A stretch of DNA of 64,000 nt. It comes from Candidatus Curtissbacteria bacterium RIFOXYA1_FULL_41_14 (lineage in GTDB: Bacteria > Patescibacteriota > Microgenomatia > Curtissbacterales > GWA2-41-24). Shown piece after piece: positions 3,572-61,339 of this stretch. Both the position numbers and the translations under genes were made by a program. Position 1 is the first letter of the stretch. Each line of letters begins with the position of its first letter. The notes beneath the pieces were generated by a model, which was given only the letters and a program-made list of their open reading frames with translations, searched no databases and was not told the DNA's origin. Where the stretch lies: NCBI GenBank assembly GCA_001775095.1, contig MFCA01000029.1:153173-217172 (forward strand), in the 5' to 3' direction.

Positions 3572-5058
3572 TTAGAAACCACCTCATAAAACCTCATAAA
3601 ACTGTTACCTATCCCCTTTTGGTATTTGCCAATTAATTTAAGATGGGGATTACCTGGATCATCCGGAAGTTTCTGGTTTTCGTTGAAAATAAAAAATGTC
3701 TTTTTAACTTTGGCTGCGTCCAAGACTTGCTGTGGAATATCACTTACAGGCCAGAAACCATGTATCTCGATATTTTTTTCGCCGTAAAAGTAAATTAAAA
3801 GTGAATAAGGTAAAAGCCCAAAGGTACCTTCAGTCCCAACATAGACTGGCTGGCTTTTTGTTTCATGTTTTAGGATCGTCACAATTTCCTCTATACCATA
3901 ACCGGCTGGCCAGTCATTTAAATATTGACCAAGATCTGAATCGGCGATATTTGCCTTTGGAGGGTTTGTTAGCAATTTATACGAATTTATAGCTGGAAAA
4001 ATAAAAATGACTGCAAAAATCATCCACAAATATTTCGAGTAATTTTTCCACTTAATTAAATTTATGACACCAAAAGATACTAGGATAATGATATAAGGAA
4101 AATAAAAAAGCATAAAACGGGGGTATAGGACTTTATTAAAAATGCTTTCAGCCAGAAAGGGTGCCAAAACATAAACTGAAAGCAGAATAACTGGAAGATT
4201 TCGTTTAATTAAACCCCAGACAATAACCAAAATAGCAATTAAGGTCAGTGGCCAACCATTATATTGGACAAGCCATGAAATTAAGGCGTGAGGATTGCTG
4301 AGTAACTGGATAAATGGGTTATTTATAATTTCGCTCACGCTTCTAATAAATTCTGAGTTTTTGCGTGCAATCATGTAGAAAAGTGGGGATAGGCGCAAGG
4401 AGTTATAAATTACAAATGCCAATATTGCGGTAATTAAAGTCAAAAATAACCACCTTATAAATCTTTGAGACCTATTCTTTTTGCTAAAATCGAAAAGCAG
4501 TAAGGAGAATGGTAATAGATAAAGAAAGAAATTTGCGGATGATTTGGTAATCATACCAAGCCCAATGGCAAATCCGTTTAACAAGGCTGTATCAAGTTGT
4601 GGCGACTTTATCATTTTCGCGGAAAAGTAAACCGCCCAAATGCCTAACATGGTAAGCAATGAATCAAAAAGAGCCATCCGATCATAGAGAAGAGTGAAGG
4701 GCAAAATAATATAAAGCAAACAGGCCAGAATTGCTGTTTTTTTATCAAACAAGTATTTGGACAGGAAATAAATTCCGACTAGCGAGCCGAAACCGGCAAA
4801 AACTGAAACAAGTCTTGAGGCTACAAGTGGATCGGATATGAATTTCTGAAAAATCGCCGCAATCCAAATAAACAAAGGCTGTTTCCCATCCTCAAGAGAA
4901 CTAAATCTATTAGCAGGATCATGAAGTGCTACTTGAGCCCAATATGTATAAATAGCTTCATCAGTAAAAATTGGAATTATCTTTAGGTTTATTAGTCTGG
5001 TTATAAAATAGGTGCTAACCAAAACAAACCAAATTAAAAGCTGGAGTTTCGACTTCAT
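3568..5058 (-). CDS. GT-C membrane glycosyltransferase, ArnT/GT83-like variant of the GT39 family
   Basis: 496 aa. 'FTDEAIYTYWAQVALHDPANRF...DGKQPLFIW' resembles the ArnT DE...KPPL arrangement. 12 or more predicted TM segments. Confidence 0.55.
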   Translation of the reverse strand: MKSKLQLLIWFVLVSTYFITRLINLKIIPIFTDEAIYTYWAQVALHDPANRFSSLEDGKQPLFIWIAAIFQKFISDPLVASRLVSVFAGFGSLVGIYFLSKYLFDKKTAILACLLYIILPFTLLYDRMALFDSLLTMLGIWAVYFSAKMIKSPQLDTALLNGFAIGLGMITKSSANFFLYLLPFSLLLFDFSKKNRSQRFIRWLFLTLITAILAFVIYNSLRLSPLFYMIARKNSEFIRSVSEIINNPFIQLLSNPHALISWLVQYNGWPLTLIAILVIVWGLIKRNLPVILLSVYVLAPFLAESIFNKVLYPRFMLFYFPYIIILVSFGVINLIKWKNYSKYLWMIFAVIFIFPAINSYKLLTNPPKANIADSDLGQYLNDWPAGYGIEEIVTILKHETKSQPVYVGTEGTFGLLPYSLLIYFYGEKNIEIHGFWPVSDIPQQVLDAAKVKKTFFIFNENQKLPDDPGNPHLKLIGKYQKGIGNSFMRFYEVVSK

Positions 5059-6830
5059 AGAGTTTTCTCTCCAATATCAAAAACTGGTGATAGGGAAAGA
5101 TCATAAATAGTACGAAGTTTTTTGGCATCCTGGGGAAGTTGGCCTGATTGAACTACATACAAAGTCCTACCCACAACAGGAATTTGGCCGGGATTATCTG
5201 AGAATTTAAATTTATCAAAACCTTCAACATCGATGAAAAAGAACTGGTTTTTGGTGACTTGAGCACTTTGCCAATATTTTTTGGGGTCAAACTGCGTGTA
5301 CAAAAGGAAGTAAATATAAGGTCTCCCAAGAGCTTTGGTAACTATAATCTGGTCAACTTGATCATATAAAGGCTTGATATCCTGTACTGCTTGTTTATAA
5401 CCGTATTGCCAATCCCCCGAATAATTTATTGGCCAGTGGAGATAGTACATATGTAAATAGTACAGAAAGTTAAGAGTCAAAAGTCCCGCCGTCGCTAAAG
5501 CTATGGCGGACAAGAAAAAGGCAGGAGTAATTAGTAGTTTTTTATATCTGATCACTTGATAAAGACTATAGAGACCAATTGCAGAGAGTATCTGGTAAGT
5601 TGGCAGAATATGAATCATTCTTAGCGCATGAGGCGTTTCTCGTGCCGTCGCGGGTCCAAGAGGCGAAATAAGTAACCACCCAATAATTAAAAAGCGATAC
5701 TTTTGTTTAGTAGCAAACAAAAAGTAGATTCCTACAAGAATAAGCGCGAGATCTATATAATAAAGCTCTCCTGTATCTTGGACAGAGAGCCGCGGATTAA
5801 CATCACCTTTCGTAAAAAGAAAACGCGGATTGAACGCATCAAAATAATGAGTGAGATATTCATATGAATAGAAAAGGCGGCGATTATGAATAATATTTGA
5901 CCACCATGAAAAATTATCTTTTTGGCGATAATGAGTTGATTGATTTATAGGATCAAGATCTTTAAAAATTGTAACTTCATCGAATCGTAATCTGCCTTCG
6001 ATAGTTTGCGTGATAAAGACAAAAAGCGGCCAGAGCAGAAAGGCAGCAATCAAAGCTGTTGCCACGACAACTTTGGTTTGGGTAAGAATCTGTTTTCGAA
6101 ATTGGATCACCAGCACTATAAGTATGAAAGGAACAAACAAACGTTGCCCGGTAAAAGTATATATTCCGGCAAGAAATGAGAGCATCGATGGAAGAATCCA
6201 AATGGGGTGATCTTGGGCGAATTTTACAAAGAGGAAAATTCCTAAAACAGAGAAAAAGAGGCCTAGATTTGCTTCGAAAGCTCCCCGGGAAAACTGCAGG
6301 TGCCAAGGGGAGATTGCAAGGAAGAAAGCGGATAGAAGAGCAATAGCTTCTGGATTTCCAATTTCAAATTTCAAATTTCTAATTTCAAATGCAAGCAAGC
6401 CAGCTTGATTCACTCCCGGAGTGTGCCAGGGCTTAACTTTGCGCACTCCGGGAGTGTGCAAAGACTGCCACCCGCTACCATTCTCGAGAAGTTTTTTGGT
6501 TAGCGGATATGTCAGCAGGACAGTCAAGACCCCGAAAAATGCTGATGGAAACCTTATCGCAAATTCATTGAGGCCAAAGACGGCAATTGAGGGCACCGTT
6601 GCATAAATATATCCAGGAGGCTTGTAATCGCCAAAGGCCGCAAAATTTGTAAAAGGCAGAAATTTTCCATGTTCATCGCGAGCTGATTTTAAAATTGAAT
6701 AAGCGTTATAGCCAAGTGACGCTTCGTCCCAATAAAGAGAGGGTGGAACGGATGCAAGTTTATAAAATCTCAATACTGCGGCAATAAAAATGATAACAAC
6801 GAGTAAATAAAAATTTAAACTTCTTGGCAT
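5055..6830 (-). CDS. GT39/PMT_2-like membrane glycosyltransferase, paralog A4, carrying a ~45-aa repeat-derived loop insertion
   Basis: 591 aa. 'YWDEASLGYNAYSILKSARDEHGKFLPF'. Insertion 'GSGWQSLHTPGVRKVKPWHTPGVNQAGLLAFEIRNLKFEIGN' lies before the conserved 'EAIALLSAFFLAISPWH'. Confidence 0.7.
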   Translation of the reverse strand: MPRSLNFYLLVVIIFIAAVLRFYKLASVPPSLYWDEASLGYNAYSILKSARDEHGKFLPFTNFAAFGDYKPPGYIYATVPSIAVFGLNEFAIRFPSAFFGVLTVLLTYPLTKKLLENGSGWQSLHTPGVRKVKPWHTPGVNQAGLLAFEIRNLKFEIGNPEAIALLSAFFLAISPWHLQFSRGAFEANLGLFFSVLGIFLFVKFAQDHPIWILPSMLSFLAGIYTFTGQRLFVPFILIVLVIQFRKQILTQTKVVVATALIAAFLLWPLFVFITQTIEGRLRFDEVTIFKDLDPINQSTHYRQKDNFSWWSNIIHNRRLFYSYEYLTHYFDAFNPRFLFTKGDVNPRLSVQDTGELYYIDLALILVGIYFLFATKQKYRFLIIGWLLISPLGPATARETPHALRMIHILPTYQILSAIGLYSLYQVIRYKKLLITPAFFLSAIALATAGLLTLNFLYYLHMYYLHWPINYSGDWQYGYKQAVQDIKPLYDQVDQIIVTKALGRPYIYFLLYTQFDPKKYWQSAQVTKNQFFFIDVEGFDKFKFSDNPGQIPVVGRTLYVVQSGQLPQDAKKLRTIYDLSLSPVFDIGEKTL

Positions 6831-6867: not shown

Positions 6868-7452
6868 TTAGTTAAAAAAGATTTCATCGCAAATTAATTT
6901 CATTTGCCAATCGAAAATAAAATAGCATAAGGATAAAAATGCCAAGAGGACAAAAACTATTTTTGCCAATTTTGTTTTTAAAAAAAAATCGATTCCCCAA
7001 AGAGAAAAGCTATACCAGAATATTGCTAAGAGAAAGAAAGAAATTTTAGAATTTAGCGTAGAAATTGCAATCAATGAGGTAGTCAAGATAACTGCGAAAT
7101 GGAATTTAGGTAAATATCTTCTCTTTTCAAATACTTTCAAAAAGGCAGCGGTTGCTAAAATTAAGCCCACCGGTCCTAAAATAACCATTAACAACTTGGG
7201 TTGAAAAGCGGAAGCAAAATTTTTAGAAAATTCAAAAATGCCAACAGTCGCTTTATTGTGGAAAAACCGGGAAATATTTCTATCCATACCGAAATCGGTA
7301 TTGACGTTTGACTCGACACTAACTTTTATAGAGAGAGGATTAAAGTAAAAACTTGAAAACTGTTTGCATCCAGTTGTCTGCCAAATTCTAAAACCAAAAA
7401 GGACAACTAAAATGATGATAAAAAATATCCTGAATTTATTTGAAGGTTTCAT
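6868..7452 (-). CDS. Small polytopic membrane protein, hypothetical
   Basis: 194 aa with about 5 hydrophobic segments. It sits between two GT39 paralogs in the same orientation. No recognisable motif. Confidence 0.4.
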   Translation of the reverse strand: MKPSNKFRIFFIIILVVLFGFRIWQTTGCKQFSSFYFNPLSIKVSVESNVNTDFGMDRNISRFFHNKATVGIFEFSKNFASAFQPKLLMVILGPVGLILATAAFLKVFEKRRYLPKFHFAVILTTSLIAISTLNSKISFFLLAIFWYSFSLWGIDFFLKTKLAKIVFVLLAFLSLCYFIFDWQMKLICDEIFFN

Positions 7453-9196
7453 TTAAATCCCACAAAGAATATATATGTCTGCCTGTCGAATCATTAGCTG
7501 CTGCTAACCATTTACCATCAACCTTCTCCCACGAGGGTGCAACATAAAGAATTCTTACCTGCCGCCTGTCGGCAGTCAGGATCTGATCATATATATTGAC
7601 ATCATCCGGAATAAAGACATATTTATCAAAATAATCCCTGTTTCCCCCAGAATTTATGAATTTCTCAGGATCATATTTCCCGTAAAAAAGCAGGTAAATA
7701 TAAGGAACCTGATTGATATTTGTTATATAGACTTTATCAAAATGATTCTGATATTTTTGCACTTGAGTCACCATTTCTCTATAACCATCTTGCCAGTCGG
7801 CAGCGAATTTTTTAGGATAATGCACGAATAAAAGGTGCAAGTATGTCAAAAATGTATAGAAAATAACAAAAGTTAATAGCACTTTAATTATCAATAATTT
7901 TTTGTTTGAAAAGATCCAGTATGCTCCAAGCGCTGAGAAAAAGGCTAGAGGTACAGACATCTGTAAAGTTCTATAAGCATGAGGCGTCGGGTTGACAATC
8001 ATTGCCGGAATTGGCGCTAAAATCAGCCAGGATAACATAATTTTAAGAGATTTTCCGCTCAGCTTTTTTAGAGCGAAAATGGAACAGACCAATAAAATCC
8101 CATCAAACAGATAAATCTGGCCCATGTCGACCTGTGAGTGTCTACCTATCTGATCGCCTTTATAAAAAAGGAAGACGGGAGAAAAGTGGTCGATGTAATT
8201 ATTAAATGCCAGATAAACATTGTATAGGGAAAAAGACCAGTATTTAGACAGAAAGCGTAAAGGTGGCTTAGAATTTTGATCATAAAAAATTCTGGCTGAC
8301 TCGTATGTATCTTGACTAAAGGCTGACTGAGAACTTGCCCTTGATTGACCTTCTGGTGAAAATGTAAAAATTATAATCGGTAAAGCCAATGTTAATGCTA
8401 AAAGTACAGGTAGTACGAATTTTGTGACTATTTTTTTGACAGCCTTAAAATGAATTAGGAGAAGTACGATCACGAACAGAGGTGTGAAAATGCGATAAGC
8501 ATGATAAAAATACATAGATAAAGTAAAGAGCAAGAAGGCCAAAGTTAAAGTTATGACTTGCTTTCTCTCGATTCCCTTAAGAAACAGATAGAGACCAAAC
8601 GTCAAGAAGAAAAGGCCTGTGGTTGATTCAAATCCACCTCTGGAAAATTGAATGTGCCAAGGGGAGATGGCCAAAAAGAAGGCGGACAAAAGAGCAATTG
8701 GTTCGCTTTTGACAACTGACCACTGACCCTTCGGTGGACTCAGGGTCATCTCTTCGACCCTAAGCCCTTTGGGTCTGAGCTCTTCGAGTCCGAGTCTCAG
8801 AGTCGAGGACCTCACGGTCGAAGACTCGTCGAATGGATGACCACTGACATTTGACTTTTCGAAAAGTTTTTTGGTCAAAAGATAAATTAATGGCACAGTG
8901 AGGAATCCGAAGAAAGCTGATGGAAAACGAACGGCAAATTCATTGAGGCCAAAAATCGCAATAGAAGGAACCAGCAGATAGTGATAACCTGGCAATTTCC
9001 AATCACCGAAACTTTCAAAGAATAGTGGCAGAGTTACTCCGTGATGGTCCTTGCCCGTCTTGAGAATCGAATAAGCGTCATAACCAAACACTGCTTCATC
9101 CCAATAAAGTCCGGGCGGATTTATCCCGAGTTGATAAAATCTAAGGATGAAGGCTAGCAAAATAATAAGTACAAGCAGAGTTTTTCTAAGGTTCAT
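7436..9196 (-). CDS. GT39/PMT_2-like membrane glycosyltransferase, paralog A5, with ~55-aa GC-rich loop insertion
   Basis: 586 aa. 'YWDEAVFGYDAYSILKTGKDHHGVTLPLF'. Insertion 'NVSGHPFDESSTVRSSTLRLGLEELRPKGLRVEEMTLSPPKGQWSVVKSEP' lies at the same loop position as in 5055..6830. Confidence 0.7.
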   Translation of the reverse strand: MNLRKTLLVLIILLAFILRFYQLGINPPGLYWDEAVFGYDAYSILKTGKDHHGVTLPLFFESFGDWKLPGYHYLLVPSIAIFGLNEFAVRFPSAFFGFLTVPLIYLLTKKLFEKSNVSGHPFDESSTVRSSTLRLGLEELRPKGLRVEEMTLSPPKGQWSVVKSEPIALLSAFFLAISPWHIQFSRGGFESTTGLFFLTFGLYLFLKGIERKQVITLTLAFLLFTLSMYFYHAYRIFTPLFVIVLLLIHFKAVKKIVTKFVLPVLLALTLALPIIIFTFSPEGQSRASSQSAFSQDTYESARIFYDQNSKPPLRFLSKYWSFSLYNVYLAFNNYIDHFSPVFLFYKGDQIGRHSQVDMGQIYLFDGILLVCSIFALKKLSGKSLKIMLSWLILAPIPAMIVNPTPHAYRTLQMSVPLAFFSALGAYWIFSNKKLLIIKVLLTFVIFYTFLTYLHLLFVHYPKKFAADWQDGYREMVTQVQKYQNHFDKVYITNINQVPYIYLLFYGKYDPEKFINSGGNRDYFDKYVFIPDDVNIYDQILTADRRQVRILYVAPSWEKVDGKWLAAANDSTGRHIYSLWDLNETFK

Positions 9197-13715: not shown

Positions 13716-14494
13716 CTTGAGGTTTTCGTTCGAAATAGAACACTTTTTACTATTCCCAATTCGTGTAAAAGATAGATAAATACTGTCCAGAGAGTTAAAA
13801 GACCGTATTTGGTTGAACGTGTGAGATTGATTGATGATGCTTCGGGGAAATATTTGCAGGGAACTGGAATTTCGGAGATATTAAATCCGAAAGACAGGGT
13901 AGAGATCAAAATCTGCTGGTCAAAAATAAAATCATCAGAAAATTTGTGGTAAGGAATGTTTGCTAAAACTTGGCGTGAATACGCACGGAAGCCGGTGTGA
14001 TACTCGGAAAGATTCAATCCCATTGCCAGATTTTCGACCAATGTTAAAAATCGATTGGCAAAGTATTTCCATAAAGGCATACCACCTGCCAAAACTTGAC
14101 TGCGGGTTTGAATCCGTGAACCGAGCATTATATCCGCCCGGCTGTTAACAATCGGTTCGCATAATACTCCAACAAGTTTGGCATCATATTGGTAGTCCGG
14201 ATGAACCATAACAACAACGTCTGGCTTTCTTTTTAAAGCTTGATCATAACAGGTTTTTTGATTAGCGCCGTAACCTTTATTCCTTTTATGAATATAGACT
14301 GTGATACCAATTTTTTTCGCTTTCTGGACAGTCTCATCACTGGAGGCATCATCGACCAGAATTACTTCAGAAATTAAATCTTTGGGCAAATCATCAACAG
14401 TTTTTTTAATAGTCTTTTCGGCATTGTAAGCCGGCATAACGACAATTATTTTGGGACTTTTATTCGGATTCCAAAGGATATTATGGTTTTGCAA
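13703..14494 (-). CDS. GT2 family glycosyltransferase
   Basis: 'VVMPAYNAEKTIKKTVDDL...ILVDDASSDET' GT-A N-terminal signature. TTG start in the ORF track. Confidence 0.7.
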   Translation of the reverse strand: MQNHNILWNPNKSPKIIVVMPAYNAEKTIKKTVDDLPKDLISEVILVDDASSDETVQKAKKIGITVYIHKRNKGYGANQKTCYDQALKRKPDVVVMVHPDYQYDAKLVGVLCEPIVNSRADIMLGSRIQTRSQVLAGGMPLWKYFANRFLTLVENLAMGLNLSEYHTGFRAYSRQVLANIPYHKFSDDFIFDQQILISTLSFGFNISEIPVPCKYFPEASSINLTRSTKYGLLTLWTVFIYLLHELGIVKSVLFRTKTSSYLK

Positions 14495-15401
14495 ATTTGT
14501 TTAGAACCTCCCTGTCGGACAATTGACAATTGACAATTGACAGCTGACAACTGACAACTAAGCTGGGAATCTGGGATAAAGCCCAGAGGAAGCCGATGAA
14601 GAAGGCCAAATCAAGAGTAGCTAGCGCTTTGACGAGATGATAAGGGAACCACGCTAGATGCTGGATAAGCCAAAGCAGGTCAGAAATATTTTTCCAGACA
14701 AAGAGAAATTGGTTTTTGTAGGAAACAGTTCTGATATAAAAATCCGATTTTGATTTTTTAATTGTGCCTTCCTGATGAAAGTGGTTTACTTTGGAATTTG
14801 GCTCAAATAGACACAAATACCCTTTTTTCCAAGCTTTGAATGAAAGATCGATGTCTTCCCAATAGAATGGAGCAAATATTTCATCAAACCCGCCGAGCTC
14901 TAAAAACTTTTCTTTGTCAAAAAGTCCGGACCCCCCAGAAACCCAGAGAGTCTCGCCAGATTCTGCCACCAGTGCAAAGTGTTCAAGGAAACCCTTTTTG
15001 AAGACTCCGCCTCCCCTTCCTCTTACCACAATTTTCCCTTTCTCGTGACTGTAATCTGCAAGACCAATGGCAAAAACTTTATCGTGAGCGAAGAGAGAAA
15101 GAGCTGGTTTCAAAAAGTCCGCTCGCGGCGCAACATCGGAATTTAGAAGTAGAACCAAATTGCCATCGGCTGCTTTTATTCCCGCATTCGCGGCATAAGC
15201 GAATCCCTTATTTTTAGGAAGTTGAATTAATTTTATCTTTTTAAAATTTTTATTGATAAAATTCACCGAATCATCTGCAGAAGCATCGTCAACGACAATT
15301 ATTTGACAATTGGGGCAATGTTTTATGACACTTGGCAAATTTTTTGCCAACAAATCACAACCATTGAAATTTGGAATAATTACTGATATTTTTTGTGCCA
15401 T
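14481..15401 (-). CDS. GT2 family glycosyltransferase with heptamer-repeat-encoded C-terminal tail
   Basis: 'ISVIIPNFNGCDLL...IIVVDDASADDS'. The C-terminal 'VVSCQLSIVNCQLSD' is encoded by the (ACAATTG)n repeat at 14518-14559. Confidence 0.7.
   Translation of the reverse strand: MAQKISVIIPNFNGCDLLAKNLPSVIKHCPNCQIIVVDDASADDSVNFINKNFKKIKLIQLPKNKGFAYAANAGIKAADGNLVLLLNSDVAPRADFLKPALSLFAHDKVFAIGLADYSHEKGKIVVRGRGGGVFKKGFLEHFALVAESGETLWVSGGSGLFDKEKFLELGGFDEIFAPFYWEDIDLSFKAWKKGYLCLFEPNSKVNHFHQEGTIKKSKSDFYIRTVSYKNQFLFVWKNISDLLWLIQHLAWFPYHLVKALATLDLAFFIGFLWALSQIPSLVVSCQLSIVNCQLSDREVLNKFAKP
14518..14559. repeat. Heptanucleotide tandem repeat (ACAATTG/ACAGCTG/ACAACTG) x6 inside the 3' end of a GT2 gene
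   Basis: gacaattgacaattgacaattgacagctgacaactgacaac. Confidence 0.8.
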
Positions 15402-25615: not shown

Positions 25616-27096
25616 CTTGAAAACAAAGATCTAATAATAATTATTGCATCTTCGGTGAGGTGTCTTTTGAAAACGGCAAATGAAAGCGCAAAATATATTA
25701 TAGCACCAATAATAATTGTCAAAATCAAACCGAAAATATCCTTTACCAGAACATTAACGGTAATTTTAACTAATAAAAACATAAGGGCAGAAATTGCAAA
25801 TGGTCCGAATATGTTTTTGCCCACCGACACCGGTATTTCCTTTTTAACAAAATAGATAATGGCAATGGAGGTAGCAGCAACTATTGCTGAGGCAAGGCCA
25901 ACTCCGATATATCCAAATTTTACAACTAACGGGTAAGTCAGCACCCATGTTGCTACTGTCCAAAAGACCATAAATTTTAAAACGATCTTGGGTCTGTTAA
26001 TTGCGAATAAACTGTTTGTAAATGTGGTTGATACTGCCGAGAAAATGCTATTGACAGCAAAAAAATAAAGCAAAGGCAATGCTGGCTCCCATTTGTTGTA
26101 TTTTGGAATAACCTCAAGCAGTTTTGGAGCTATTGCTGCCATGCCAAAAACTGAAGGGTAAACGAAATAAGTTACAAAAAACAGAGATTTCTCAACGGCC
26201 TTGCTCAGTTCATTAGTGTGAGATTGGAGCCGGGAGTATGCTGGAAATGTGACTTTATTGACATTGTCCATAAAAAAGCGCAGCGGTATAAATGCCCATT
26301 TTTGGGCCCAGCCGATGTAGCCGACTTGGGCGAAAGGCAAAATTTTCCCGAGAAATGCCGTTAGAAGATCGTCTTTTAAAAGAGCAAGGACACTATTTGC
26401 CTGAAAGGGTATACCAAAGGAAGTTAATCTTTTGGCATTTTTCAAACTTATGCCTATTGCCGGACGCCAGGGTGAAAGAATATATATTAGAACTAGGCCA
26501 ACTATTCCTCTTGCTAGAACAGCCCATGTAAATGCTGCAATGCCGAATTTTAAATATGCTAAAACAACTGCTACAGTATAAAAGACAATATTCTCGGCAA
26601 TTTGCGGAATAACTAAAAGCGTAAAGTTTAGTTTCCTCTCAAGGAGGATAGAAGGAATTGTTTTTAGAGAGGATAAAACCAAGGAAAAGATGAGTACTCT
26701 AAGAAGTAATAACCCTTGGTAATCAAGTTTATAAAAAGCGGCAATTTTCGCGGAGATCATTAAGCCAATTACAACCAAGGAGAAAATAATAAGTTGCTGA
26801 ATTGTAAATGTTGAAACTAAATCATCTCGAGATGGTTCTTCTTTCTTTTGAATTAAGGCAGCAGCGAGCCCAACATCCGAAAAATAGATGAAGAGATTAA
26901 TAATTGCTGAAACGACAAAGAAAATCCCAAAAATTTCCGGTGCAAGAAGTATTGTCAGGATGAAAGTTGCCAAGAAAGTAAACGCCTGAACAAAAAAAGT
27001 CCTTAAAGTAAACGTAACAACTCCGGCAATCGCCTTCTTTTTAATCAGTTCAATATCAAGTAAGGAATCCGTCTCTGTCATCGAATATTTCTCCAT
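25612..27096 (-). CDS. Wzx-like polysaccharide/oligosaccharide flippase (MOP superfamily)
   Basis: 494 aa with about 12-14 TM segments. Typical size and position within a glycan cluster. No soluble domain. Confidence 0.55.
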   Translation of the reverse strand: MEKYSMTETDSLLDIELIKKKAIAGVVTFTLRTFFVQAFTFLATFILTILLAPEIFGIFFVVSAIINLFIYFSDVGLAAALIQKKEEPSRDDLVSTFTIQQLIIFSLVVIGLMISAKIAAFYKLDYQGLLLLRVLIFSLVLSSLKTIPSILLERKLNFTLLVIPQIAENIVFYTVAVVLAYLKFGIAAFTWAVLARGIVGLVLIYILSPWRPAIGISLKNAKRLTSFGIPFQANSVLALLKDDLLTAFLGKILPFAQVGYIGWAQKWAFIPLRFFMDNVNKVTFPAYSRLQSHTNELSKAVEKSLFFVTYFVYPSVFGMAAIAPKLLEVIPKYNKWEPALPLLYFFAVNSIFSAVSTTFTNSLFAINRPKIVLKFMVFWTVATWVLTYPLVVKFGYIGVGLASAIVAATSIAIIYFVKKEIPVSVGKNIFGPFAISALMFLLVKITVNVLVKDIFGLILTIIIGAIIYFALSFAVFKRHLTEDAIIIIRSLFSR

Positions 27097-28811
27097 CTTA
27101 GCCGAAGGATATATATAATTATCATAGTAATTATTGTACCAATTGTTATTGTGTTTGCTTGCGTCCGAACAGGAGTGTTGGTAAATACTACCTCAATCTG
27201 ATGAGATCCTTCGGGAACATCTATCGTTATCAATTTATAAGGATTGTTGTCCTGAATTATTGTCTTTTGACCATCAATCTTGGCTTGCCAACCGGGAAAA
27301 TTGAATACGTTTACTCTGACTGGGGATGTTTTTTGAGCATTTGACGTGAACTGGATCTTAGAAGGACTGCCTTTGAGATTTTCTATCTTAGTTGTTCCTT
27401 GAATTAATCGAACTTTTTCTCTAGGAATTTGGCATGTCCCGATCCTTAAAAGGTTAGTATCGTTTGGACTTTTATAAAGGGGCAGACCGACAGGAACGTA
27501 CTCGAAAGACGACCTGGAAACATCCCAATTAATAATCTTTTTTGACGTTGCGATCTCATCTGTTAAATCCGGACGATATGTCTGGGGTTTAAAAAGTTTA
27601 AAGTTTGTGACGACAAGAAGGGTTATTAGAATTAAAGAGGCTATCAGTCTTAATATAGGTAGTTTTAAAAGATAGATGAAGGCACCAGCCAGAATTGATG
27701 AAAAAAGAGATGTGAATATTAAGAAGCGCCATGGGAATTGGAGATAACCAAGAGGGGTGACTAAATCCCAAATTAGTTTGGAGTAACTGGTGGTCATGAA
27801 AGCACTAAAGACAAACAAGAAAAAATTGAAAATTGAAAATTGAAAATTGAAAATTTCTTTTCGAGTATAGGACTTTAATTTGTTTCTAACTAAATAAATT
27901 ATGGCAAAAAATAAAGACATTACGGACAAGACTATGTGGAGCTTGCCGATTTTAAAGGAAATTCCATCAGCAAGCCCAGCGGCTGACCCGCCAAAACCCC
28001 AAGGCCAATTCCAAAGCTGCTGTGGAAAAACGAAATGAATATTGTAATTGGCAAGATTCACCAAAAGTAATTGGTCAACAATTGTAAATTTTTTCTCTAA
28101 AATTGCCGGGGCCCAGAAAAACGCCGACAGTCCTAAAGCCAAAACAGTAGACAGTAGACAGTGGGCAGTGGACAGAATTTTTGTATTCGATTTCCATATT
28201 AAAAATAATAAATAGAAAGGTAGGATGAGCATAAATGGTAGAAAGATAAGATTATGAGTGATCATTAAAAGTGCCAGAAATACAGCTGATAGATAGATAT
28301 AAATTGTTTTGTTCGTTTTAACTAATTTATAAAATGACCAAAGAATTACCGGGAGCCAAACGAAAGAAAAAGATTCTGCCAGTGCTCCTCTGATGTAAAC
28401 GTCTATAGCTCTATAAGGAACCAGTATGTAAAAAAACGCGCTGACAATTCCGGCATATCTGCCCCAAAACTCTTTTACCAAAATATACATCGCTAAACCC
28501 GAAGCAAATATTGAGGTAAAAAAAACAAGCTTTATTGAATCTATGAAACTAAAACCTATTAAATGGAATAATTCTCCAACCATATAAACTAGAGGCGGAT
28601 AAAATACAAATAAGGGATAACCAAAACCAAATCCCAGTTCGTCAACCCAACGAGGCGGAAATTGACCGGCTTTTAGGGCCTGATCAAAAAGAAGAAGACG
28701 GGCAATCTGCTGATCATCGTGGATTATAAAAAGTCCGGGTTTAAGAAGAGGTAATGACACCAGGATACTGAAGAAAAGAATTAGTAATATAGGAATCAAG
28801 CCTTTTTTCAT
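27078..28811 (-). CDS. Polytopic membrane protein family C (putative GT-C), paralog C1. Contains two internal heptamer repeat tracts.
   Basis: 577 aa. 'HDDQQIARLLLFDQALKAGQFPPRWVDELGFGFGYPLFVFYPPL...GFSFIDSIKL' is shared with 35496..37100. Confidence 0.5.
   Translation of the reverse strand: MKKGLIPILLILFFSILVSLPLLKPGLFIIHDDQQIARLLLFDQALKAGQFPPRWVDELGFGFGYPLFVFYPPLVYMVGELFHLIGFSFIDSIKLVFFTSIFASGLAMYILVKEFWGRYAGIVSAFFYILVPYRAIDVYIRGALAESFSFVWLPVILWSFYKLVKTNKTIYIYLSAVFLALLMITHNLIFLPFMLILPFYLLFLIWKSNTKILSTAHCLLSTVLALGLSAFFWAPAILEKKFTIVDQLLLVNLANYNIHFVFPQQLWNWPWGFGGSAAGLADGISFKIGKLHIVLSVMSLFFAIIYLVRNKLKSYTRKEIFNFQFSIFNFFLFVFSAFMTTSYSKLIWDLVTPLGYLQFPWRFLIFTSLFSSILAGAFIYLLKLPILRLIASLILITLLVVTNFKLFKPQTYRPDLTDEIATSKKIINWDVSRSSFEYVPVGLPLYKSPNDTNLLRIGTCQIPREKVRLIQGTTKIENLKGSPSKIQFTSNAQKTSPVRVNVFNFPGWQAKIDGQKTIIQDNNPYKLITIDVPEGSHQIEVVFTNTPVRTQANTITIGTIITMIIIYILRLRWRNIR
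27822..27856. repeat. (AAAATTG)x4.7 heptanucleotide tandem repeat inside CDS 27078..28811
   Basis: aaaattgaaaattgaaaattgaaaattgaaaattt encoding FNFQFSIFNFF. Confidence 0.85.
28145..28176. repeat. (CAGTRGR)x4.5 heptanucleotide tandem repeat inside CDS 27078..28811
   Basis: cagtagacagtagacagtgggcagtggacaga. Confidence 0.8.
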
Positions 28812-47761: not shown

Positions 47762-49273
47762 TTAACTACCCTTAATCGCCGGCTTACCGGCAGGGTTGGG
47801 GGCCCCGGACCAGTGTGTAAGTTTAAAAACTTTGATGCCGATATTGGGCAATTCCCATTCCCCTGCTATTTCTCCTCTGCCAAAGCCGGCTATTTCCCAA
47901 ATTGGATTTCCAAGCGGCGCACATTGCTGTGATTCGCAAACAACCAGCAATTGATTGGTAATCATTGTTTCAAGATCAACTGGTCTGTATCCTTTAAATT
48001 CCAGAAAATACCGATAGGCATGATCACTATTATGTTCTGAGATTAGAGCGAAATTAAACTGCTCTTCATTCGATTTTTGGATGATAAAATCGGCAACTGT
48101 TTCTGTTTGGTTGATAAGGCGATTCGGAGGTGTCTTGTAAAAACCGTTAACTGAAAAATAGATTAGTGCCAAAATAGTTACAATAACAACGGATAATCTG
48201 TAGAAAAGATTGTACCAGAAAGTGGAAAAAACAAGTCCAGCTAGCAAAAATGGCGCGGGAAACAAAAATCCGAAATAATAATCATGGACTTGCCCTTTAT
48301 AAAAACGCAGTCCTGCAAGACCGCCTAAAAACCAAATAACGGCTATTGAGAAAATTAATCTCTTTTCATAGTTTTTCCAGTGTTTGACAAGTCCGAATAA
48401 TCCGCTAAAGGTTAAAATCCAAAAAGCCAACCTGGTAATAATTGTTCCTTTAAGTCCGGTTATCCATTCTAAAAAGATATTGCCGCCATTGGATATCAAC
48501 CATGAATAACTTTTTGTCTGGTAACCGACTGTTGATCCGCGGGTTACAAATTCAAGTATCGTTTTAAAGTTTGGAAACCCGTGACGAATTTCAAATATCA
48601 AAAATGGGGAAAAGGTGATAATTGAACCGAGCAAGTAAATCAGAAATATCACCGGCCACCTTTTGAAATTGGAACTCGTAATAACAATAAGGCCAAAAAT
48701 CGCGATTAAGATTGTTGCCAGATAGTGGAGTTGAATGGCAATACCAAAAGATGCACCAGCTGCCAGAAAATACAGAATCTTCTTTCGAGTAACTCCTAAA
48801 TAAATTAAATAAATCATCAGAAGCGAGAAAAAGGGTAATGGATTCGGATTCCATGATGATCTTGAATATCTAACAACCAATGGTGCGATAGCATAAAGCG
48901 AACTTGCTAAAATCGCCGGCCAAAATCCTGCTGTCTCCTTTAAAAATTTATAGAGAAGAAGGACAGTTAAGACGCCAAAAATCGCAATCATATATGAGGG
49001 GCCAACTGGATCAAAGCGCCAAGCCCACAAAAACGGGGCTGCCATCCAGTAATAGATTGGTCCGAGATAAAAACCGCCAACCGATGCTGTCGGACCAAGA
49101 AAAGGCAGGTGGCCTTGGGTAAAAATCTCGCGCATGACTATCATGTCCCGGCCTTCATCACCAAGAAAAACAACATAATCGCCAATTTGCCAAAAACGGA
49201 AGAAGGTTGCAACGAGGATGAGTAAAATAAGTAAAGTTAGTTGAATTGGTTTGGGAAAATTAAATAGAGTCAT
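47762..49273 (-). CDS. Polytopic membrane protein family B, paralog B5
   Basis: 'FLGDEGRDMIVMREIFTQGHLPFLGPTASVGGFYLGPIYYW'. Confidence 0.5.
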   Translation of the reverse strand: MTLFNFPKPIQLTLLILLILVATFFRFWQIGDYVVFLGDEGRDMIVMREIFTQGHLPFLGPTASVGGFYLGPIYYWMAAPFLWAWRFDPVGPSYMIAIFGVLTVLLLYKFLKETAGFWPAILASSLYAIAPLVVRYSRSSWNPNPLPFFSLLMIYLIYLGVTRKKILYFLAAGASFGIAIQLHYLATILIAIFGLIVITSSNFKRWPVIFLIYLLGSIITFSPFLIFEIRHGFPNFKTILEFVTRGSTVGYQTKSYSWLISNGGNIFLEWITGLKGTIITRLAFWILTFSGLFGLVKHWKNYEKRLIFSIAVIWFLGGLAGLRFYKGQVHDYYFGFLFPAPFLLAGLVFSTFWYNLFYRLSVVIVTILALIYFSVNGFYKTPPNRLINQTETVADFIIQKSNEEQFNFALISEHNSDHAYRYFLEFKGYRPVDLETMITNQLLVVCESQQCAPLGNPIWEIAGFGRGEIAGEWELPNIGIKVFKLTHWSGAPNPAGKPAIKGS

Positions 49274-49280
49274 CTTTAGT

Positions 49281-49366
49281 AAATTTCTAATTTCTAATTC
49301 CTAATTTCTAAATAATTCCCAAATCCCAATCTCCAAATTGTTTAGGTCAATTAGTAATTAGGGCAA
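49281..49366. repeat. Intergenic heptamer/decamer repeat block: (TAATTTC)x4 then AATTAGGTCA-like units
   Basis: aaatttctaatttctaattcctaatttctaaa...ggtcaattagtaattagggcaattaggtcaatt. Confidence 0.75.
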
Positions 49367-50566
49367 TTAGGTCAATTTTGAAGGTGGGGCTTTCCAAATC
49401 CAAAGAATATTAGCCAAATAATTAAAGACGAGACCTACTAGTACTCCAGTCGCTAAACCGATTTGTTCATGAAGATGTAAAACTCTGACAAATATCAAGA
49501 TGCTGGCAAGTTGAATGACCGGACTTATGATAGAAGTTAGATTAAATTTCAAAAATCTGAGAAGCACAAATCCCTTATGTGAACGTTCTTTAAATGTCCA
49601 GTTTTCGTGGAAAATAAAATTAAAAACAATCGAAAGTTCAATGGAAATAAGCGATGCGACGAATAGTCGATCCAGTATTAAGAAAAATAATTTTGGGGCC
49701 CCAGTTTCCGGGATCATCGATAAGAGAGGTTTTGCAAAAACCGTTAGGGCATAAATTTGACCGCGATTTAAAAGGCCAAGTGCAATTGCATTCAAAAAAT
49801 AACTAACGGCTCCGACAGTCAAAAATTTAATTAACATTTTGGATTTTTGAAGGCGAGCTTTTATGCCAAACTTAATAACATCAATGGTGTAGGCAATGAT
49901 TTTCGCTTTAGAATAACCTTTTTTGCGGTCCACAAAGGTTATGGGCACTTCTTTGATTTTGGCCCCGGAGGTCATAGCAGCATACAAAAAAGCAGGCTGA
50001 ATAATGTATGTTTTTGCGCGCCAGGGAATTTTGTTGATATCAATCTTTTCAAAAAGTTTTTTTGTAAAAACTCGATAGGAATTAGTGTATTCTGACAAAC
50101 GAAACGTTCCCCAACTTAGTTTGCAATAAAGCGATGACCCTTTGGTAAAAAGTCTCCGATGCCATCCCAGTAAATTTTTTCCGCCTTTAGTCAGTCTTGA
50201 CCCATTTACCAGATCGTATCCATCATTAATAAACCCAACCATTTTTGGCAGGGTCGAAGGATCATGCGAAAGATCACCATCCATCTGGGCTAAAATATCT
50301 GCTTTAAGTCTACCAATTGCAAAACGATGGCCTTTGATTATACCTACGCCAAGTCCTCTTTGTTTTACATCGAGGTAATGAACTTTGGGATTTGTTCTCG
50401 TGATCCTCTTGACGATCTGGTCAGTACCATCAGGAGAATGGCTATCAGCAACTAATACGTGAAGATCGATTTGCGGCATAAATTTTGCCTGGGAGAGAAT
50501 CTTGGTAATTAGTTCTTCAATATTATCTTTTTCGTTGTACGTGGGAATATTAACGACAAGTCTCAT
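49367..50566 (-). CDS. GT2 polyprenol-phosphate sugar synthase fused to C-terminal GtrA-like 4-TM domain
   Basis: N-terminal 'VVNIPTYNEKDNIEELITKI...VLVADSHSPDGT' GT2 domain plus a C-terminal about 120 aa with 4 TM segments. Confidence 0.65.
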   Translation of the reverse strand: MRLVVNIPTYNEKDNIEELITKILSQAKFMPQIDLHVLVADSHSPDGTDQIVKRITRTNPKVHYLDVKQRGLGVGIIKGHRFAIGRLKADILAQMDGDLSHDPSTLPKMVGFINDGYDLVNGSRLTKGGKNLLGWHRRLFTKGSSLYCKLSWGTFRLSEYTNSYRVFTKKLFEKIDINKIPWRAKTYIIQPAFLYAAMTSGAKIKEVPITFVDRKKGYSKAKIIAYTIDVIKFGIKARLQKSKMLIKFLTVGAVSYFLNAIALGLLNRGQIYALTVFAKPLLSMIPETGAPKLFFLILDRLFVASLISIELSIVFNFIFHENWTFKERSHKGFVLLRFLKFNLTSIISPVIQLASILIFVRVLHLHEQIGLATGVLVGLVFNYLANILWIWKAPPSKLT

Positions 50567-51540
50567 ATGGTATTTTTCTTAAGTAGTTCGATATCCGCCT
50601 TAACCATCATCTCCACTAGTTGAGGAAAAGAAACTGTCGGCTTCCAGTTGAGAATTTTGGCGGCACGGGTGGCATCACCGACTAGAAAATCAACCTCAGC
50701 CGGACGAAACAGGTCCTTAGAAACCTTGACATGTTTTTCCCAATTCTTGATGCCGATAACCCCGAATGCTTCTGTTACAAATTCTGCCACGGAATGATTT
50801 TCACCCGTGGCAATAACAAAGTCGCTCGGTTTATTCTGCTGCAACATCATCCACATGGCCTTGACGTAATCACCGGCAAAACCCCAGTCGCGCTTAGCAT
50901 CCAGGTTGCCGAGTGAAATATGATCGGCTTGTCTGAGATGTATTCTAGCAATACCGTGGGAAATTTTGCGGGTAACAAATTCCAGTCCCCGTCTTGGCGA
51001 CTCGTGGTTGAAAAGAATACCGGAAATTGTAAAAAGTCCATATGACTCACGGTAATTGATAGTTATCCAATGGCCGTAAACTTTGGCAACGCCATAGGGG
51101 CTTCTGGGATGAAAAGGCGTTTTTTCGTTTTGAGGAGACTGTTCTACTTTACCAAACATTTCAGATGAGGAGGCCTGATAAAATTTAGCGTCCGGTTTTA
51201 CCTGTCTTATGGCCTCAAGCATCCGAGTAACCCCCAGAGCGGTAAATTCCCCGGTCAGAACAGGTTGAGACCAGGAAGTAGCCACAAAACTTTGGGCTGC
51301 CAAATTATAAACCTCATCTGGTTTTGAATGACTGACAGCATAAGTTAGGGATTGTTGATCCAAAAGATCGCCGGGGATTAACTCGATTTGGTCTTCAATA
51401 TGTTTGATGCGTTCGTAATTGGGAGTAGAAGTTCTTCTGGTTAAGCCAAAGACTTTGTAACCTTTGGACAGAAGAAATTCAGCAAGATAAGAACCATCTT
51501 GGCCAGTAATACCAGTAATTAAAGCGCGCTTTTGGGCCAT
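50563..51540 (-). CDS. gmd: GDP-mannose 4,6-dehydratase
   Basis: 'KRALITGITGQDGSYLAEFLLSKGYKVFGLTRRTS' and 'SPYGVAKVYGHWIT' match the canonical Gmd N-terminus and YxxxK. Confidence 0.85.
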   Translation of the reverse strand: MAQKRALITGITGQDGSYLAEFLLSKGYKVFGLTRRTSTPNYERIKHIEDQIELIPGDLLDQQSLTYAVSHSKPDEVYNLAAQSFVATSWSQPVLTGEFTALGVTRMLEAIRQVKPDAKFYQASSSEMFGKVEQSPQNEKTPFHPRSPYGVAKVYGHWITINYRESYGLFTISGILFNHESPRRGLEFVTRKISHGIARIHLRQADHISLGNLDAKRDWGFAGDYVKAMWMMLQQNKPSDFVIATGENHSVAEFVTEAFGVIGIKNWEKHVKVSKDLFRPAEVDFLVGDATRAAKILNWKPTVSFPQLVEMMVKADIELLKKNTI

Positions 51541-51544
51541 TGAT

Positions 51545-51650
51545 TAAATTCGAAATTCAAATATCGAAATCCAAAACAATTTCTAAATTCTAAATTCAAA
51601 TGATCAAAAACTTTTTTTTGAATTTTGAAAATTTGAAAATTTGAATTTGT
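51545..51650. repeat. Palindromic heptamer array: (AAATTCN)n arm facing a (GAAAATT)n arm
   Basis: aaattcgaaattcaaat...aatttctaaattctaaattcaaatgatcaaaaacttttttttgaattttgaaaatttgaaaatttgaatttg. Confidence 0.7.
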
Positions 51651-52628
51651 TTAGTGTTTCGTGCTTCGTGCTTCGAATTTTAATTTACTTCTTTCGTATT
51701 CAATTGTATCAGAAAGCGTTTTCAAAAGGGGTATTCTGGGTTGCCAACCGGTTTGTTTTTTAAACTTGTCAAAATTGCAGTAGATTTTTTCAATCTCAAC
51801 CGGGCGCAGTAAACTTGGATCTTTTTCGATTTTGATTTTGGCCGAGGAGAGTGAAAGTAACATGTCAAGTATCTTACGGATCTGAATCGATTTTCCACAA
51901 CCAATGTTGTAAACTTCACCGGGTATACCACTGTCAAGTGCTAAAAGATAGGCACGGACCATATCTCTTACGTCAGTGAAATCACGAAACGAGTTAAGAT
52001 TGCCTACTTTCATTGTCCCTTTACCTTGTTTCTCTAAAGAGACGATTCGTGAAGCAAATGCTGATACTACAAAATTAACAGACTGTCTGGGACCGATATG
52101 ATTGAAGGGTCTCACGCGTACTATATGAAGCTTATGATGCAGGAAAAATTGTAAACCCAGCATATCCTGAGCGACTTTCGAAACTGCATATGGAGAATTT
52201 GGCTTTAGGGGCGTATTTTCATCTGCCGGTAAATACTTTTCATCAATCTGGCCGTATTCGTCTGCCGAGCCGATAACCAGAATTTTTGCTTTTGATCTTA
52301 TTTTAACTAACGATTCTAAAAGATTGATTTGGCAGAAAATATTATTCTGTAGAGTTTCTTTGGGGTTTTTGAAGCTATCGGCCGGAGATGAAAAAGCGGC
52401 TAAATGAAAAACGTAATCTGGATTTATAAGTCTAACTTCTTTTTCTACTGCCTTTGTATTTTGTAAATCGCAGGCAACTACTTTTATTTGAGCTTTGATT
52501 TGCTTTAGATTACCTGTTGGATGACTTGAAAGAAAAAAACCGCAAACTGAAATTTTTTGAGAAAGTAACAATTCTGCCAGGTGACTGCCGGCAAACCCAG
52601 CAATACCGGTAATTAGGGCTTTTTTCAT
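51651..52628 (-). CDS. rmd: GDP-4-dehydro-6-deoxy-D-mannose reductase (Rmd-like)
   Basis: 'ALITGIAGFAGSHLAELL', 'SPYAVSKVAQD', 'RPFNHIGPRQ', 'YNIGCGKS' closely follow Rmd signatures. Adjacent to gmd. The 3' end carries a (GTGCTTC)x3 repeat at 51655-51676. Confidence 0.7.
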   Translation of the reverse strand: MKKALITGIAGFAGSHLAELLLSQKISVCGFFLSSHPTGNLKQIKAQIKVVACDLQNTKAVEKEVRLINPDYVFHLAAFSSPADSFKNPKETLQNNIFCQINLLESLVKIRSKAKILVIGSADEYGQIDEKYLPADENTPLKPNSPYAVSKVAQDMLGLQFFLHHKLHIVRVRPFNHIGPRQSVNFVVSAFASRIVSLEKQGKGTMKVGNLNSFRDFTDVRDMVRAYLLALDSGIPGEVYNIGCGKSIQIRKILDMLLSLSSAKIKIEKDPSLLRPVEIEKIYCNFDKFKKQTGWQPRIPLLKTLSDTIEYERSKLKFEARSTKH

Positions 52629-52717: not shown

Positions 52718-52718
52718 G

Positions 52719-55201: not shown

Positions 55202-55723
55202 CTATTTCGATAAAAAATCTTCACGAACCTTTTGCCACTTGAGAATGTCGTTTTGCACCCTGCCTTCATCTTCTGGATTGTAAAGTTGGGTTGGAAAATT
55301 GAGAAGATATCCGGGCTCTTTGGAAACTACCATAAAGCCGTGATAAGTTTCCCGGGGTATGACAACCATAAACATTTCCTCATCTTTTTCCGGTCCCATC
55401 AAAAAAAGATTTAGGTTATCTTTGGTCCTTGATTTTTCCCGGGGGTCATAAACCGCGACGACGATTCTTCCTTTAGCGCAAATGAAACGGTCTTCCTGAT
55501 ATTTGTGGACATGCCATTTGTCTTCATCGCGAGCGATCCCGGAGGGCGTAACTGAAAAGTATTGCATGGCGAATGGCATCTCTTGACCAAATACATCTTG
55601 CCAGTCAGTTCGCAAAGTTTCGACTAAGGTGCCAGTGGGATCCTTGTGAATTATTAATTTTCGCAAAACCACTCCATCGATTAGATTATTTTGATTGGAA
55701 AAAATAAGGTAAGGATAATTCAT
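55202..55723 (-). CDS. rmlC: dTDP-4-dehydrorhamnose 3,5-epimerase (divergent RmlC cupin)
   Basis: Collinear with E. coli RmlC: 'YFSVTPSGIARDEDKWHVHKYQ' aligns with 'SFSYKGVLRGLHYQ', and 'TYHGFMVVSKEPGYLLNFPTQLYNPEDEGRV' with 'FAHGFVVLSEYAEFLYKTTNYYHPESERGI'. Sits between rmlB and rmlD. Confidence 0.6.
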   Translation of the reverse strand: MNYPYLIFSNQNNLIDGVVLRKLIIHKDPTGTLVETLRTDWQDVFGQEMPFAMQYFSVTPSGIARDEDKWHVHKYQEDRFICAKGRIVVAVYDPREKSRTKDNLNLFLMGPEKDEEMFMVVIPRETYHGFMVVSKEPGYLLNFPTQLYNPEDEGRVQNDILKWQKVREDFLSK

Positions 55724-61286: not shown

Positions 61287-61339
61287 AGAACCAGAATTGG
61301 AATTAGGTTCTTTATATTAAACGATTTACAGCCTTATGG

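Follow-up and report, generated by a model that had tools for sequence, protein, structure and literature searches.

Heptanucleotide tandem arrays at conserved codon positions in glycosyltransferase genes of Candidatus Curtissbacteria and their potential as frameshift sites

We analysed a stretch of 64,000 nucleotides (hereafter the window; contig MFCA01000029.1, positions 153,173 to 217,172) from Candidatus Curtissbacteria, a member of the candidate phyla radiation (CPR) from the Rifle aquifer, in which tandem 7-nt repeats are found within genes for surface glycosylation. Proteins encoded in the window are identical to those of metagenome-assembled genomes from Rifle (e.g., KKR58766), and nearly all of its genes have a role in glycosylation as judged from Pfam and related annotation. 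At the center of our analysis stands the gene at 27078..28811 on the minus strand, which encodes a membrane glycosyltransferase of 577 residues (PTPS_related/YfhO-like) and contains two such arrays within its open reading frame (ORF). The focal protein scores 23.3 bits against the Pfam family PF10131, which is under the family cut-off. Its AlphaFold2 model (predicted local distance difference test, pLDDT, of 86.8; predicted template modelling score, pTM, of 0.89) yielded PglB, STT3, EmbC, ArnT, AftD, DPY19 and Pmt4 as top Foldseek matches in the PDB. Judging from these structural matches, the focal protein is predicted to be a glycosyltransferase of the GT-C fold. At least 763 homologs were found at E ≤ 1e-30, largely within Curtissbacteria.

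Arrays were located by Tandem Repeats Finder (TRF) and by direct reading of the sequence. The first array of the focal gene (site 1; 28144-28175, minus strand) is (ACAGTAG)x4.6 with 88% matches, reads (CTGTCTA)x4.6 on the coding strand and encodes the peptide LSTAHCLLSTV at the start of helix 211-228. The second array (site 2; 27822-27855, minus strand) is (AAAATTG)x4.9 with 100% matches, reads (AATTTTC)x4.9 on the coding strand and encodes IFNFQFSIFNF at the start of helix 317-340. In the structural model, the arrays encode the first turns of these two helices, each right behind a short Lys/Arg-rich loop. An earlier note on this DNA had reported five 7-nt arrays inside coding genes; all five are present, with coordinates accurate within 1-2 nt as judged by TRF and direct reading, and all lie in intact minus-strand ORFs. 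Its statement that gain or loss of a unit shifts the frame was likewise borne out: because seven is not a multiple of three, each unit change truncates the enzyme, and in the predicted ±1-unit frames the ORF ends within 5-25 codons. The same is true for its assignment of the repeats to envelope and glycosyltransferase genes, as the array-bearing genes encode GT-C enzymes (PglB/ArnT/PMT-like), GT2 glycosyltransferases and nucleoside diphosphate (NDP)-sugar enzymes, which belong to the surface- and envelope-modifying class.

The arrays are non-random and specific to a period of seven. At a TRF score of at least 40, the window contains 7 period-7 arrays, compared to 0.02 expected and a maximum of 1 in 100 third-order Markov shuffles, and at this score no other period is in clear excess over the shuffles. 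Perfect arrays of at least 3 units occur twice in the window and not once in 200 shuffles. Within 776 kb of related loci, period 7 is also the commonest (79 arrays), followed by period 14 (35 arrays). The arrays of these loci are not mainly intergenic, as 77 of 89 lie within ORFs of at least 90 residues, a fraction that changes to 15 of 27 once the focal gene is excluded. At least 10 different heptamer units are present in the window and none of them is dominant. The AATTTTC unit of site 2 is also arrayed in unrelated genes of other Patescibacteria (L008, L086).

We then compared the focal gene with its orthologs at the DNA level, employing 85 loci, 5 from genomes (L001-L005) and 80 from metagenomes, with amino-acid identities of 44-94%. 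About 50 of the 85 carry a period-7 array, or a period-14 array corresponding to two heptamers, of roughly 5 units at query residues 211-215 and 314-326. At site 2, a heptamer array is found in 44 loci and comprises 21 distinct rotation-normalised units, while 30 loci contain a heptamer or 14-mer array at site 1 with 19 distinct units (e.g., TTGTCAA, TTGTCAG, CTGTCAA, TTCACAG, TTACCAG, TTACCAT, CTACTAC, ACTATTC, AACTTTC and AATTTTC for the orthologs). The units are linked by one- or two-base steps into a network centred on (C/T)TGTCA(A/G), which fits one ancestral array followed by concerted evolution. Many of the ortholog arrays are 100% homogeneous despite the unit differences between lineages, and codon-aligned DNA of L001-L005 shows lineage-specific base changes in all units of an array. 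Accordingly, the array peptides in an alignment of 127 proteins are three-frame translations of single heptamers (LSIVNCQLSIV, LSTVNCQLSTV, LSVVSCQLSVV, LPVTSYQLPVT, FTVHSSQFTV, LPFTIYHLPFT and IFNFQFSIFNF). Array segments are 64-78% identical where the proteins elsewhere are 90% identical. Several orthologs are shorter by exactly 7 residues at site 2, i.e., by three units in frame, and in L003, P0087, P0093, P0096, P0097 and P0120 the length of the segment is kept with its periodicity lost. Taken together, the gene family has retained the array positions, whereas the unit sequence was replaced jointly in every copy. As homogeneity over such deep divergence requires continuing turnover of units, the aligned sequences point to concerted evolution at both sites. 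We also considered and rejected that the two arrays of one gene homogenise each other or that each genome prefers a particular unit, as the units of sites 1 and 2 are no more alike within a gene than between genomes (mean distance of 2.5 versus 2.7; permutation p = 0.18).

Alleles that lack exactly one unit occur in natural populations, including an allele with a split gene at a site orthologous to site 2. The first case concerns the array (GACAATT)x5.7 (90% matches; 14518-14557, minus strand), whose coding units are AGTTGTC/AATTGTC and which is located near the 3' end of the GT2 gene 14481..15401; the stop of this gene follows at a distance of 37 nt, and the TTG start of the adjoining GT2 gene at 23 nt. 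The peptide encoded by this array, VVSCQLSIVNCQL, precedes the conserved tail SDREVLNKFAKP. In 120 orthologs of this GT2 protein, a heptamer-derived peptide of constant length (e.g., NYQLPTTNYQL, NWKFEIGNWKL, NSQLSNLNSQL or NFSLFTFHFSL) precedes the C-terminal motif SDREVLxKFxKP, which is always in frame. Over 2377 nt, a Rifle scaffold of the window's own species (L103) differs from the window in nothing but one missing AGTTGTC unit; its GT2 tail becomes ...IVNCPTGRF* and the conserved motif is gone. The second case is found at site 2 of a sister species. Here, L053 and L055 contain 4.6 units of TTGTCAA within an intact gene of 582 residues, whereas L107 and L108, derived from two assemblies, contain 3.6 units, exactly one fewer, without any further difference in 1742 nt, and their gene is split into ORFs of 337 and 243 residues. 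The form with 4.6 units comes from the JGI data sets Ga0209542 and C687J35174, and that with 3.6 units from ERZ4903055 and ERZ27254752. The intact form (P0106, P0107) is represented by 7 contigs of the sister species and the split form (P0305), which was recovered by a search with the N-terminal 316 residues of the focal protein, by 2 contigs. Two more proteins, P0318 and P0371, are candidate frameshifts at site 1 as judged from the protein sequence.

Both verified cases of unit loss involve TTGTCAA-type units. Folding analysis in comparison to shuffled sequences gave z = -5.1 for (TTGTCAA)n, a weak z = -1.8 for the GT2 tail array, and z = +0.96 and +1.33 for the focal arrays. Hairpin-stabilised slipped intermediates fit the unit-loss cases in TTGTCAA-type arrays, although the sample is small. 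For the focal arrays, a hairpin or cruciform basis was rejected, since their structure is not above that of shuffles and only TTGTCAA-type arrays fold. Other candidate length variants were rejected as well. Cluster members of 239 residues, which might have represented OFF alleles generated by slippage, have other origins. In L020, a groundwater contig otherwise identical to the window, an AAA>TAA change at ~2918 (window ~27880), 30 nt before the site-2 array, creates ORFs of 310 and 239 residues; L021 contains a scaffold gap and L022 reaches its contig end. The length variants P0135, P0145, P0146, P0148, P0154, P0155 and P0162 go back to contig ends, frameshifts elsewhere or divergent alleles rather than to the arrays.

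Further arrays of the window reside in PMT-like genes, where three paralogs (321..1925, 5055..6830 and 7436..9196) carry different units, all in the loop between transmembrane helices 3 and 4 (TM3-TM4) before the motif IALLSAFFLAISPWH. In the PMT-family gene 5055..6830, (ATTTCAA)x5.3 with 90% matches (6354-6390, minus strand; coding unit TTGAAAT) lies in this loop right before the motif, and no variants of it were found among 9 cluster members or 61 contigs. The PMT_2 gene 321..1925 contains (ATTTACC)x4.6 at about 1554-1586 (minus strand; coding unit GGTAAAT), which can alternatively be read as a 14-mer x2.3. This array is identical in L105 and L106 and constitutes the entire loop insert relative to the paralogs 1922..3571 and 3568..5058, which possess a minimal TM3-TM4 loop and are array-free. 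A weak array, (TGACCAC)x2.7 (8710-8728, minus strand; coding unit GTGGTCA), occupies the TM3-TM4 loop of the PMT_2 gene 7436..9196. Moreover, (GTGCTTC)x3.1 (51654-51675, minus strand; coding unit GAAGCAC) forms the last codons of the gene 51651..52628, which encodes an NDP-sugar dehydratase/reductase of the GDP-mannose-dehydratase family. Three regions are intergenic: (AATTTCT)x4.3 at 49282-49311, which precedes the start codon of the PMT_2 gene 47762..49273(-) by 8 nt; a cluster of period 7/8 with an inverted pair at 51546-51645, whose beginning precedes the start codon of the GDP-mannose 4,6-dehydratase gene 50563..51540(-) by 5 nt; and a run of heptamers at 55733-55868 (AATTTAC x2.7, AATTTTT and ATTTCAA x4.4) between the stop of 55870..56880(-) and a position 9 nt upstream of the start of 55202..55723(-). 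These three intergenic regions and the coding arrays at about 1554-1586 and 8710-8728 are absent from the earlier note.

The glycosylation island that harbors these genes exceeds 74 kb (window 1-57600 plus L106 11605-21605), in a small CPR genome. Its genes are almost all on one strand, with stops overlapping starts. At least 10 of them are paralogous GT-C-type membrane enzymes (PMT, PMT_2, YfhO and PTPS_related), accompanied by GT2 and GT4 transferases, a flippase, GDP-mannose dehydratase and related NDP-sugar enzymes. The island also extends at least 10 kb past the left end of the window, with further glycosylation genes and just one weak array. The guanine plus cytosine content (G+C) across the window is 35-44%, and scans of the window for tRNAs and Rfam families returned no matches. 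A cyanobacterial context with highly iterated palindrome 1 (HIP1) and short tandemly repeated repetitive (STRR) sequences was rejected, as the HIP1 site GCGATCGC occurs once in the window with 0.3 expected and the homologs belong to Curtissbacteria. At 52625-52722, a 47-nt tandem duplication (2.1 copies, 98% identical) repeats a GAGGAA Shine-Dalgarno-like box and the ATG region of the gene 51651..52628(-), and copy 1 overlaps the true start codon. At the right end of the window and outside the island, 58422-63931 encodes proteins of 776 residues with an M23 peptidase domain, of 383 residues with RTX (HemolysinCabind) repeats and of 425 residues with a lamin-tail domain, which are likely secreted or surface proteins. 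The protein at the right end itself was not found among recorded proteins.

The edge of the island is marked by an ORF of 221 residues at 57706..58371 (+) with an IS200-like Y1 transposase domain (PF01797, E = 2e-8). Given the GC-rich palindromes within nearby genes, this ORF may encode a transposase associated with repetitive extragenic palindromes (RAYT-like). Palindromes of the type CACTCC(C/G)GGAGTG are located at 6411-6423 and 6444-6456 beside the array of 5055..6830. Several orthologs contain GC-rich hairpin inserts, translated in frame, inside or beside their heptamer arrays, with the form CCCGCC-GAAGCTTTAGCGAAG-GCGGG or as versions of ~70 nt (L001 10955-10985; L085 ~4956; L090 ~390; site 2 of L030, L042, L051 and L044). 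No further copies of these inserts were found in the loci compared. The idea that the arrays are target-site duplications or footprints of the inserts was rejected, since the insert flanks are not direct repeats.

Some metagenomic contigs are altered at the arrays on a larger scale. In L023, a divergent patch of ~170 nt (1447-1620, corresponding to ~nt 870-1045 of the focal gene) is centred on site 2 and carries (TTCACAG)x4.6, while its flanks are 100% identical to the window; no close match to a donor of this patch was found among the loci compared. A replacement of this kind is also found in the GT2 tail of L104 (2330-2380), with an AACTATC-like unit. Both contigs originate from the Joint Genome Institute (JGI) sample 3300025164 and are 97-100% identical to the window away from the patches, which could reflect recombination between co-occurring lineages or assembly mosaicism. 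L109 (~3538) and L110 (~2294) match an ortholog or the window with 100% identity up to the last array base, and the sequence beyond it is unrelated. After the junction, the G+C of L110 rises from 0.32 to 0.41 and an LptE-like gene follows at 2.4x coverage. L109 and L110 are probably assembly chimeras seeded by the repeats rather than rearrangement alleles.

With the distribution of the arrays at hand, we favor, on balance, an explanation in which they are heptanucleotide microsatellites that arise from slippage at permissive sites and act as ON/OFF frameshift sites. Replication slippage would create the microsatellites and keep them homogeneous, and changes in unit number would arise by slipped-strand mispairing. 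The tracts would persist where the protein tolerates nearly any hydrophobic or small-residue sequence, i.e., in the initial turns of membrane helices, in the TM3-TM4 loop that PMT-like enzymes possess and in the linker before a C-terminal motif. Each tract might then serve as a reversible ON/OFF site in a surface-glycan gene, and OFF subpopulations could matter ecologically, for instance in the escape from phage or host recognition. An ON/OFF mechanism by slipped strands is mechanistically sound, because unit loss is documented and each change shifts the frame and truncates the product. That the tracts are slippage-prone heptanucleotide microsatellites able to toggle the frame is therefore supported, whereas an adaptive, high-frequency switch is not shown.

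Several observations weigh against a switch at the focal tracts. In the species of the window, length differences of the focal arrays were found neither on at least 60 contigs with an intact protein nor among 11 protein variants. The contigs L020, L021, L022 and L110 agree fully with the window through both arrays. None of the four predicted ±1-unit products of the focal gene occurs in a collection of ~15 billion proteins, the reading frame is kept in each of the 85 DNA orthologs, and OFF-type alleles make up ~1% of the family members seen. The sole null allele of the focal gene found in this species is the nonsense mutation of L020 and does not result from slippage. Array peptides of proteins that are more than 97% identical are 100% (site 1) and 95% (site 2) alike, so that the tracts are not hypermutable over short time scales. 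In-frame alleles of 8 units were found neither among the orthologs nor in the protein alignment. Furthermore, coding arrays of the window and of the 776 kb of relatives reach a maximum of 5.7 units with a median of 4.6, which is shorter than established heptanucleotide contingency tracts. Every mid-gene tract in the population of the window is fixed at its ON length, and any switching there would be of low frequency. The earlier note had read the arrays as slipped-strand phase-variation switches. Of this claim, the capacity for unit loss stands, given the alleles of L103 and of L107/L108 compared to L053/L055, whereas invariant focal arrays, absent OFF products and orthologs that are in frame throughout speak against its application to the focal gene. 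A classic high-frequency contingency locus is not supported at the coordinates it reported, since these arrays are fixed, the orthologs are all ON and the tracts hold no more than 5.7 units compared to about 6-38 in Haemophilus. The comparison of copy numbers between strains that it had proposed, naming identical counts as the refuting outcome, gave identical counts for the focal arrays across consensus assemblies.

The main rival to frameshift sites with a function is a non-adaptive by-product, in which slippage biased towards heptamers acts at tolerant sites and frameshift alleles are deleterious mutants or decaying paralogs purged by selection. We consider this possible, though less probable than the account favored above. 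It agrees with mid-gene arrays that are all in frame in the 85 orthologs and on at least 60 conspecific contigs, with their shortness (at most 5.7 units), with the lack of hypervariability among close relatives and with the presence of arrays in intergenic DNA. Arrays can also decay by point mutation without consequence, as seen in L003, P0087, P0093, P0096, P0097 and P0120, and with at least 10 GT-C paralogs in the island the loss of one may be nearly neutral. Less easily accommodated are perfect arrays at two sites down to 44% amino-acid identity with units replaced in every copy, for which the homogenising rate must exceed the input of point mutations. Constraint on the frame combined with turnover of the unit is easiest to understand if lineages pass through OFF states; the OFF allele of the sister species, on 2 of 9 contigs, is frequent for a simply deleterious mutant; and arrays of three different glycosyltransferase families share their placement in a loop or at a helix start.

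The arrays might instead be cis-acting nucleic-acid signals, such as binding sites (e.g., for cold-shock or S1-type RNA binders) or regulatory hairpins, with the potential for frameshifting being incidental. Such a role is improbable overall. Evidence in its favor comes from outside the coding regions, where the start codons at 51540, 49273 and 55723 are preceded by arrays at distances of 5, 8 and 9 nt, where arrays abut an ATG in the relatives L010 (19778-19802) and L015 (1293-1340 and 5232-5253), and where an inverted pair (AATTGAC)/(CAATTGT) of Bacteroides ends 3 nt before the ATG of a YfhO-like gene. The intergenic regions of this genome are so short, however, that proximity to a start codon is weak evidence. 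Moreover, the good folding of (TTGTCAA)n (z = -5.1) is not shared by the focal arrays, which are no more structured than shuffles (z = +0.96 and +1.33), Rfam finds nothing, and 21 units at one site among the orthologs, together with units that differ within the genome, leave no single conserved motif. A cis signal is unlikely for the coding arrays, as neither sequence nor structure is conserved, and may apply to the intergenic ones. Selection at the protein level, by which a duplicated 7-residue peptide at the helix start would be conserved and the 7-nt period be its consequence, is hardly credible in our view. The second half of the site-2 peptide (QLSxVFF...) does belong to a conserved helix, but a peptide duplication of 21 nt would not yield a 7-nt period, and all three frames of one heptamer are used in turn. 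The ortholog peptides are completely different with the DNA period kept, synonymous positions inside the arrays are not free to vary, and the same type of array exists in non-coding DNA.

A more far-reaching version of the slippage explanation is that second-order selection kept both tracts at the two helix starts of the GT-C protein across the Curtissbacteria/Microgenomates radiation, and likewise the tracts of the PMT-like and GT2 genes. This would amount to an ancient, family-wide contingency system with a drifting unit and a preserved, frameshift-ready structure of 5 units, which we regard as doubtful at present. If correct, simple-sequence phase variation would thereby be described for the first time in CPR bacteria, and these episymbionts would gain stochastic variation of surface glycans, e.g., against phage or for host attachment. 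CPR bacteria, or Patescibacteria, constitute a large and mostly uncultured share of bacterial diversity and live attached to hosts and exposed to phages. To our knowledge, it is essentially unknown how they vary their surfaces. Tracts that switch glycosyltransferases would represent a simple and testable source of cell-surface heterogeneity in such organisms. Irrespective of function, the arrays show with unusual clarity how, in nature, a microsatellite can keep its codon position over very long times despite turnover of its unit, which bears on the old and unexplained excess of 7-nt repeats in prokaryotes. They are also places where metagenome assemblies differ or break, as exemplified by two contigs that lose synteny at the array end, and thus affect the quality of annotation and binning.

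Short direct heptamer repeats have been reported from other bacteria. In Beggiatoaceae, Cyanobacteria and some Bacteroidetes, TAACTGA repeats directly precede start codons (MacGregor 2015, PMC4679880), and cold-shock or S1-type RNA binders were proposed as their readers (PMC4679880). The intergenic arrays of the window, 5, 8 and 9 nt upstream of starts, resemble this arrangement, which does not hold for the focal coding arrays. The reverse strand of TAACTGA translates into LSVISYQ, and the repeat is one base away from the commonest CPR units, (TTGTCAG)n = LSVVSCQ and (TTGTCAA)n = LSIVNCQ. Unlike the TAACTGA system with its one dominant genome-wide unit in almost only non-coding DNA, no unit dominates here and the best-conserved arrays are coding. 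A related structure was seen in Bacteroides faecis, B. xylanisolvens and B. thetaiotaomicron (L011-L014; e.g., L011 7675-7787), where (AATTGAC)x4.4, a GC-rich stem and (CAATTGT)x4.9 extend from a stop codon to 3 nt before the ATG of a YfhO-like gene of 849 residues. It is identical in several species, and its heptamer is the commonest unit of the CPR arrays.

Rickettsia palindromic elements, reportedly described by Ogata et al. in 2000, are said to be dispersed, palindromic selfish insertions of 100-150 nt that lie in frame in protein-coding genes. They share with the arrays described here that small repeats, in several orthologs GC-rich hairpins, are translated in frame at permissive positions of conserved proteins; the arrays differ in being tandem 7-mers generated in situ.

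In many prokaryotes, no class of long simple-sequence repeats (LSSRs) is more abundant than the heptanucleotides, for which a connection to polymerase slippage has been made (Mrazek 2007, cited after the summaries in PMC4679880 and PMC4692102). As far as these summaries go, our arrays are similar to heptanucleotide LSSRs such as the cyanobacterial STRR sequences and the GGGNATC repeats of Xanthomonas and Nostoc, with regard to the period-7 excess, the many units, the proposed origin by slippage and the variation in length and sequence at the same locus between related genomes. The summarised cases are mostly intergenic and often long, up to tens of units, whereas the arrays studied here lie mostly within ORFs, in frame, with ~5 units and are orthologous over deep divergence. 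In the literature searched, we found no description of heptanucleotide tracts in CPR bacteria, of microsatellites that keep their codon position throughout a protein family despite turnover of the unit, or of a near-constant tract length of 5 units.

The closest functional parallel is provided by the simple-sequence repeat (SSR) contingency loci. In Haemophilus influenzae, heptanucleotide tracts credited with phase variation contain about 6-38 units, with examples at the hmw1A/2A promoters, in the AATTTTG tract inside hmw1a and in AACAACC tracts (PMC2651432). As in SSR contingency loci, our arrays have a unit length not divisible by three and are placed within or directly before genes for surface structures, comparable to those for lipooligosaccharide, capsule and glycosyltransferases. 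A one-unit change shifts the frame, and both ON and OFF alleles are present in the natural population of a relative, namely the sister species. Unlike the Haemophilus tracts, those of Curtissbacteria have ~5 units, and OFF alleles are rare and, for the focal tracts, absent. Their length is nearly invariant, at 5 units or at 2 after an in-frame loss of three, they reside mid-gene at helix starts rather than N-terminally, and their host is an uncultured CPR bacterium and not a host-adapted pathogen. They also differ in that their position is conserved over a whole protein family, which is unusual for such loci.

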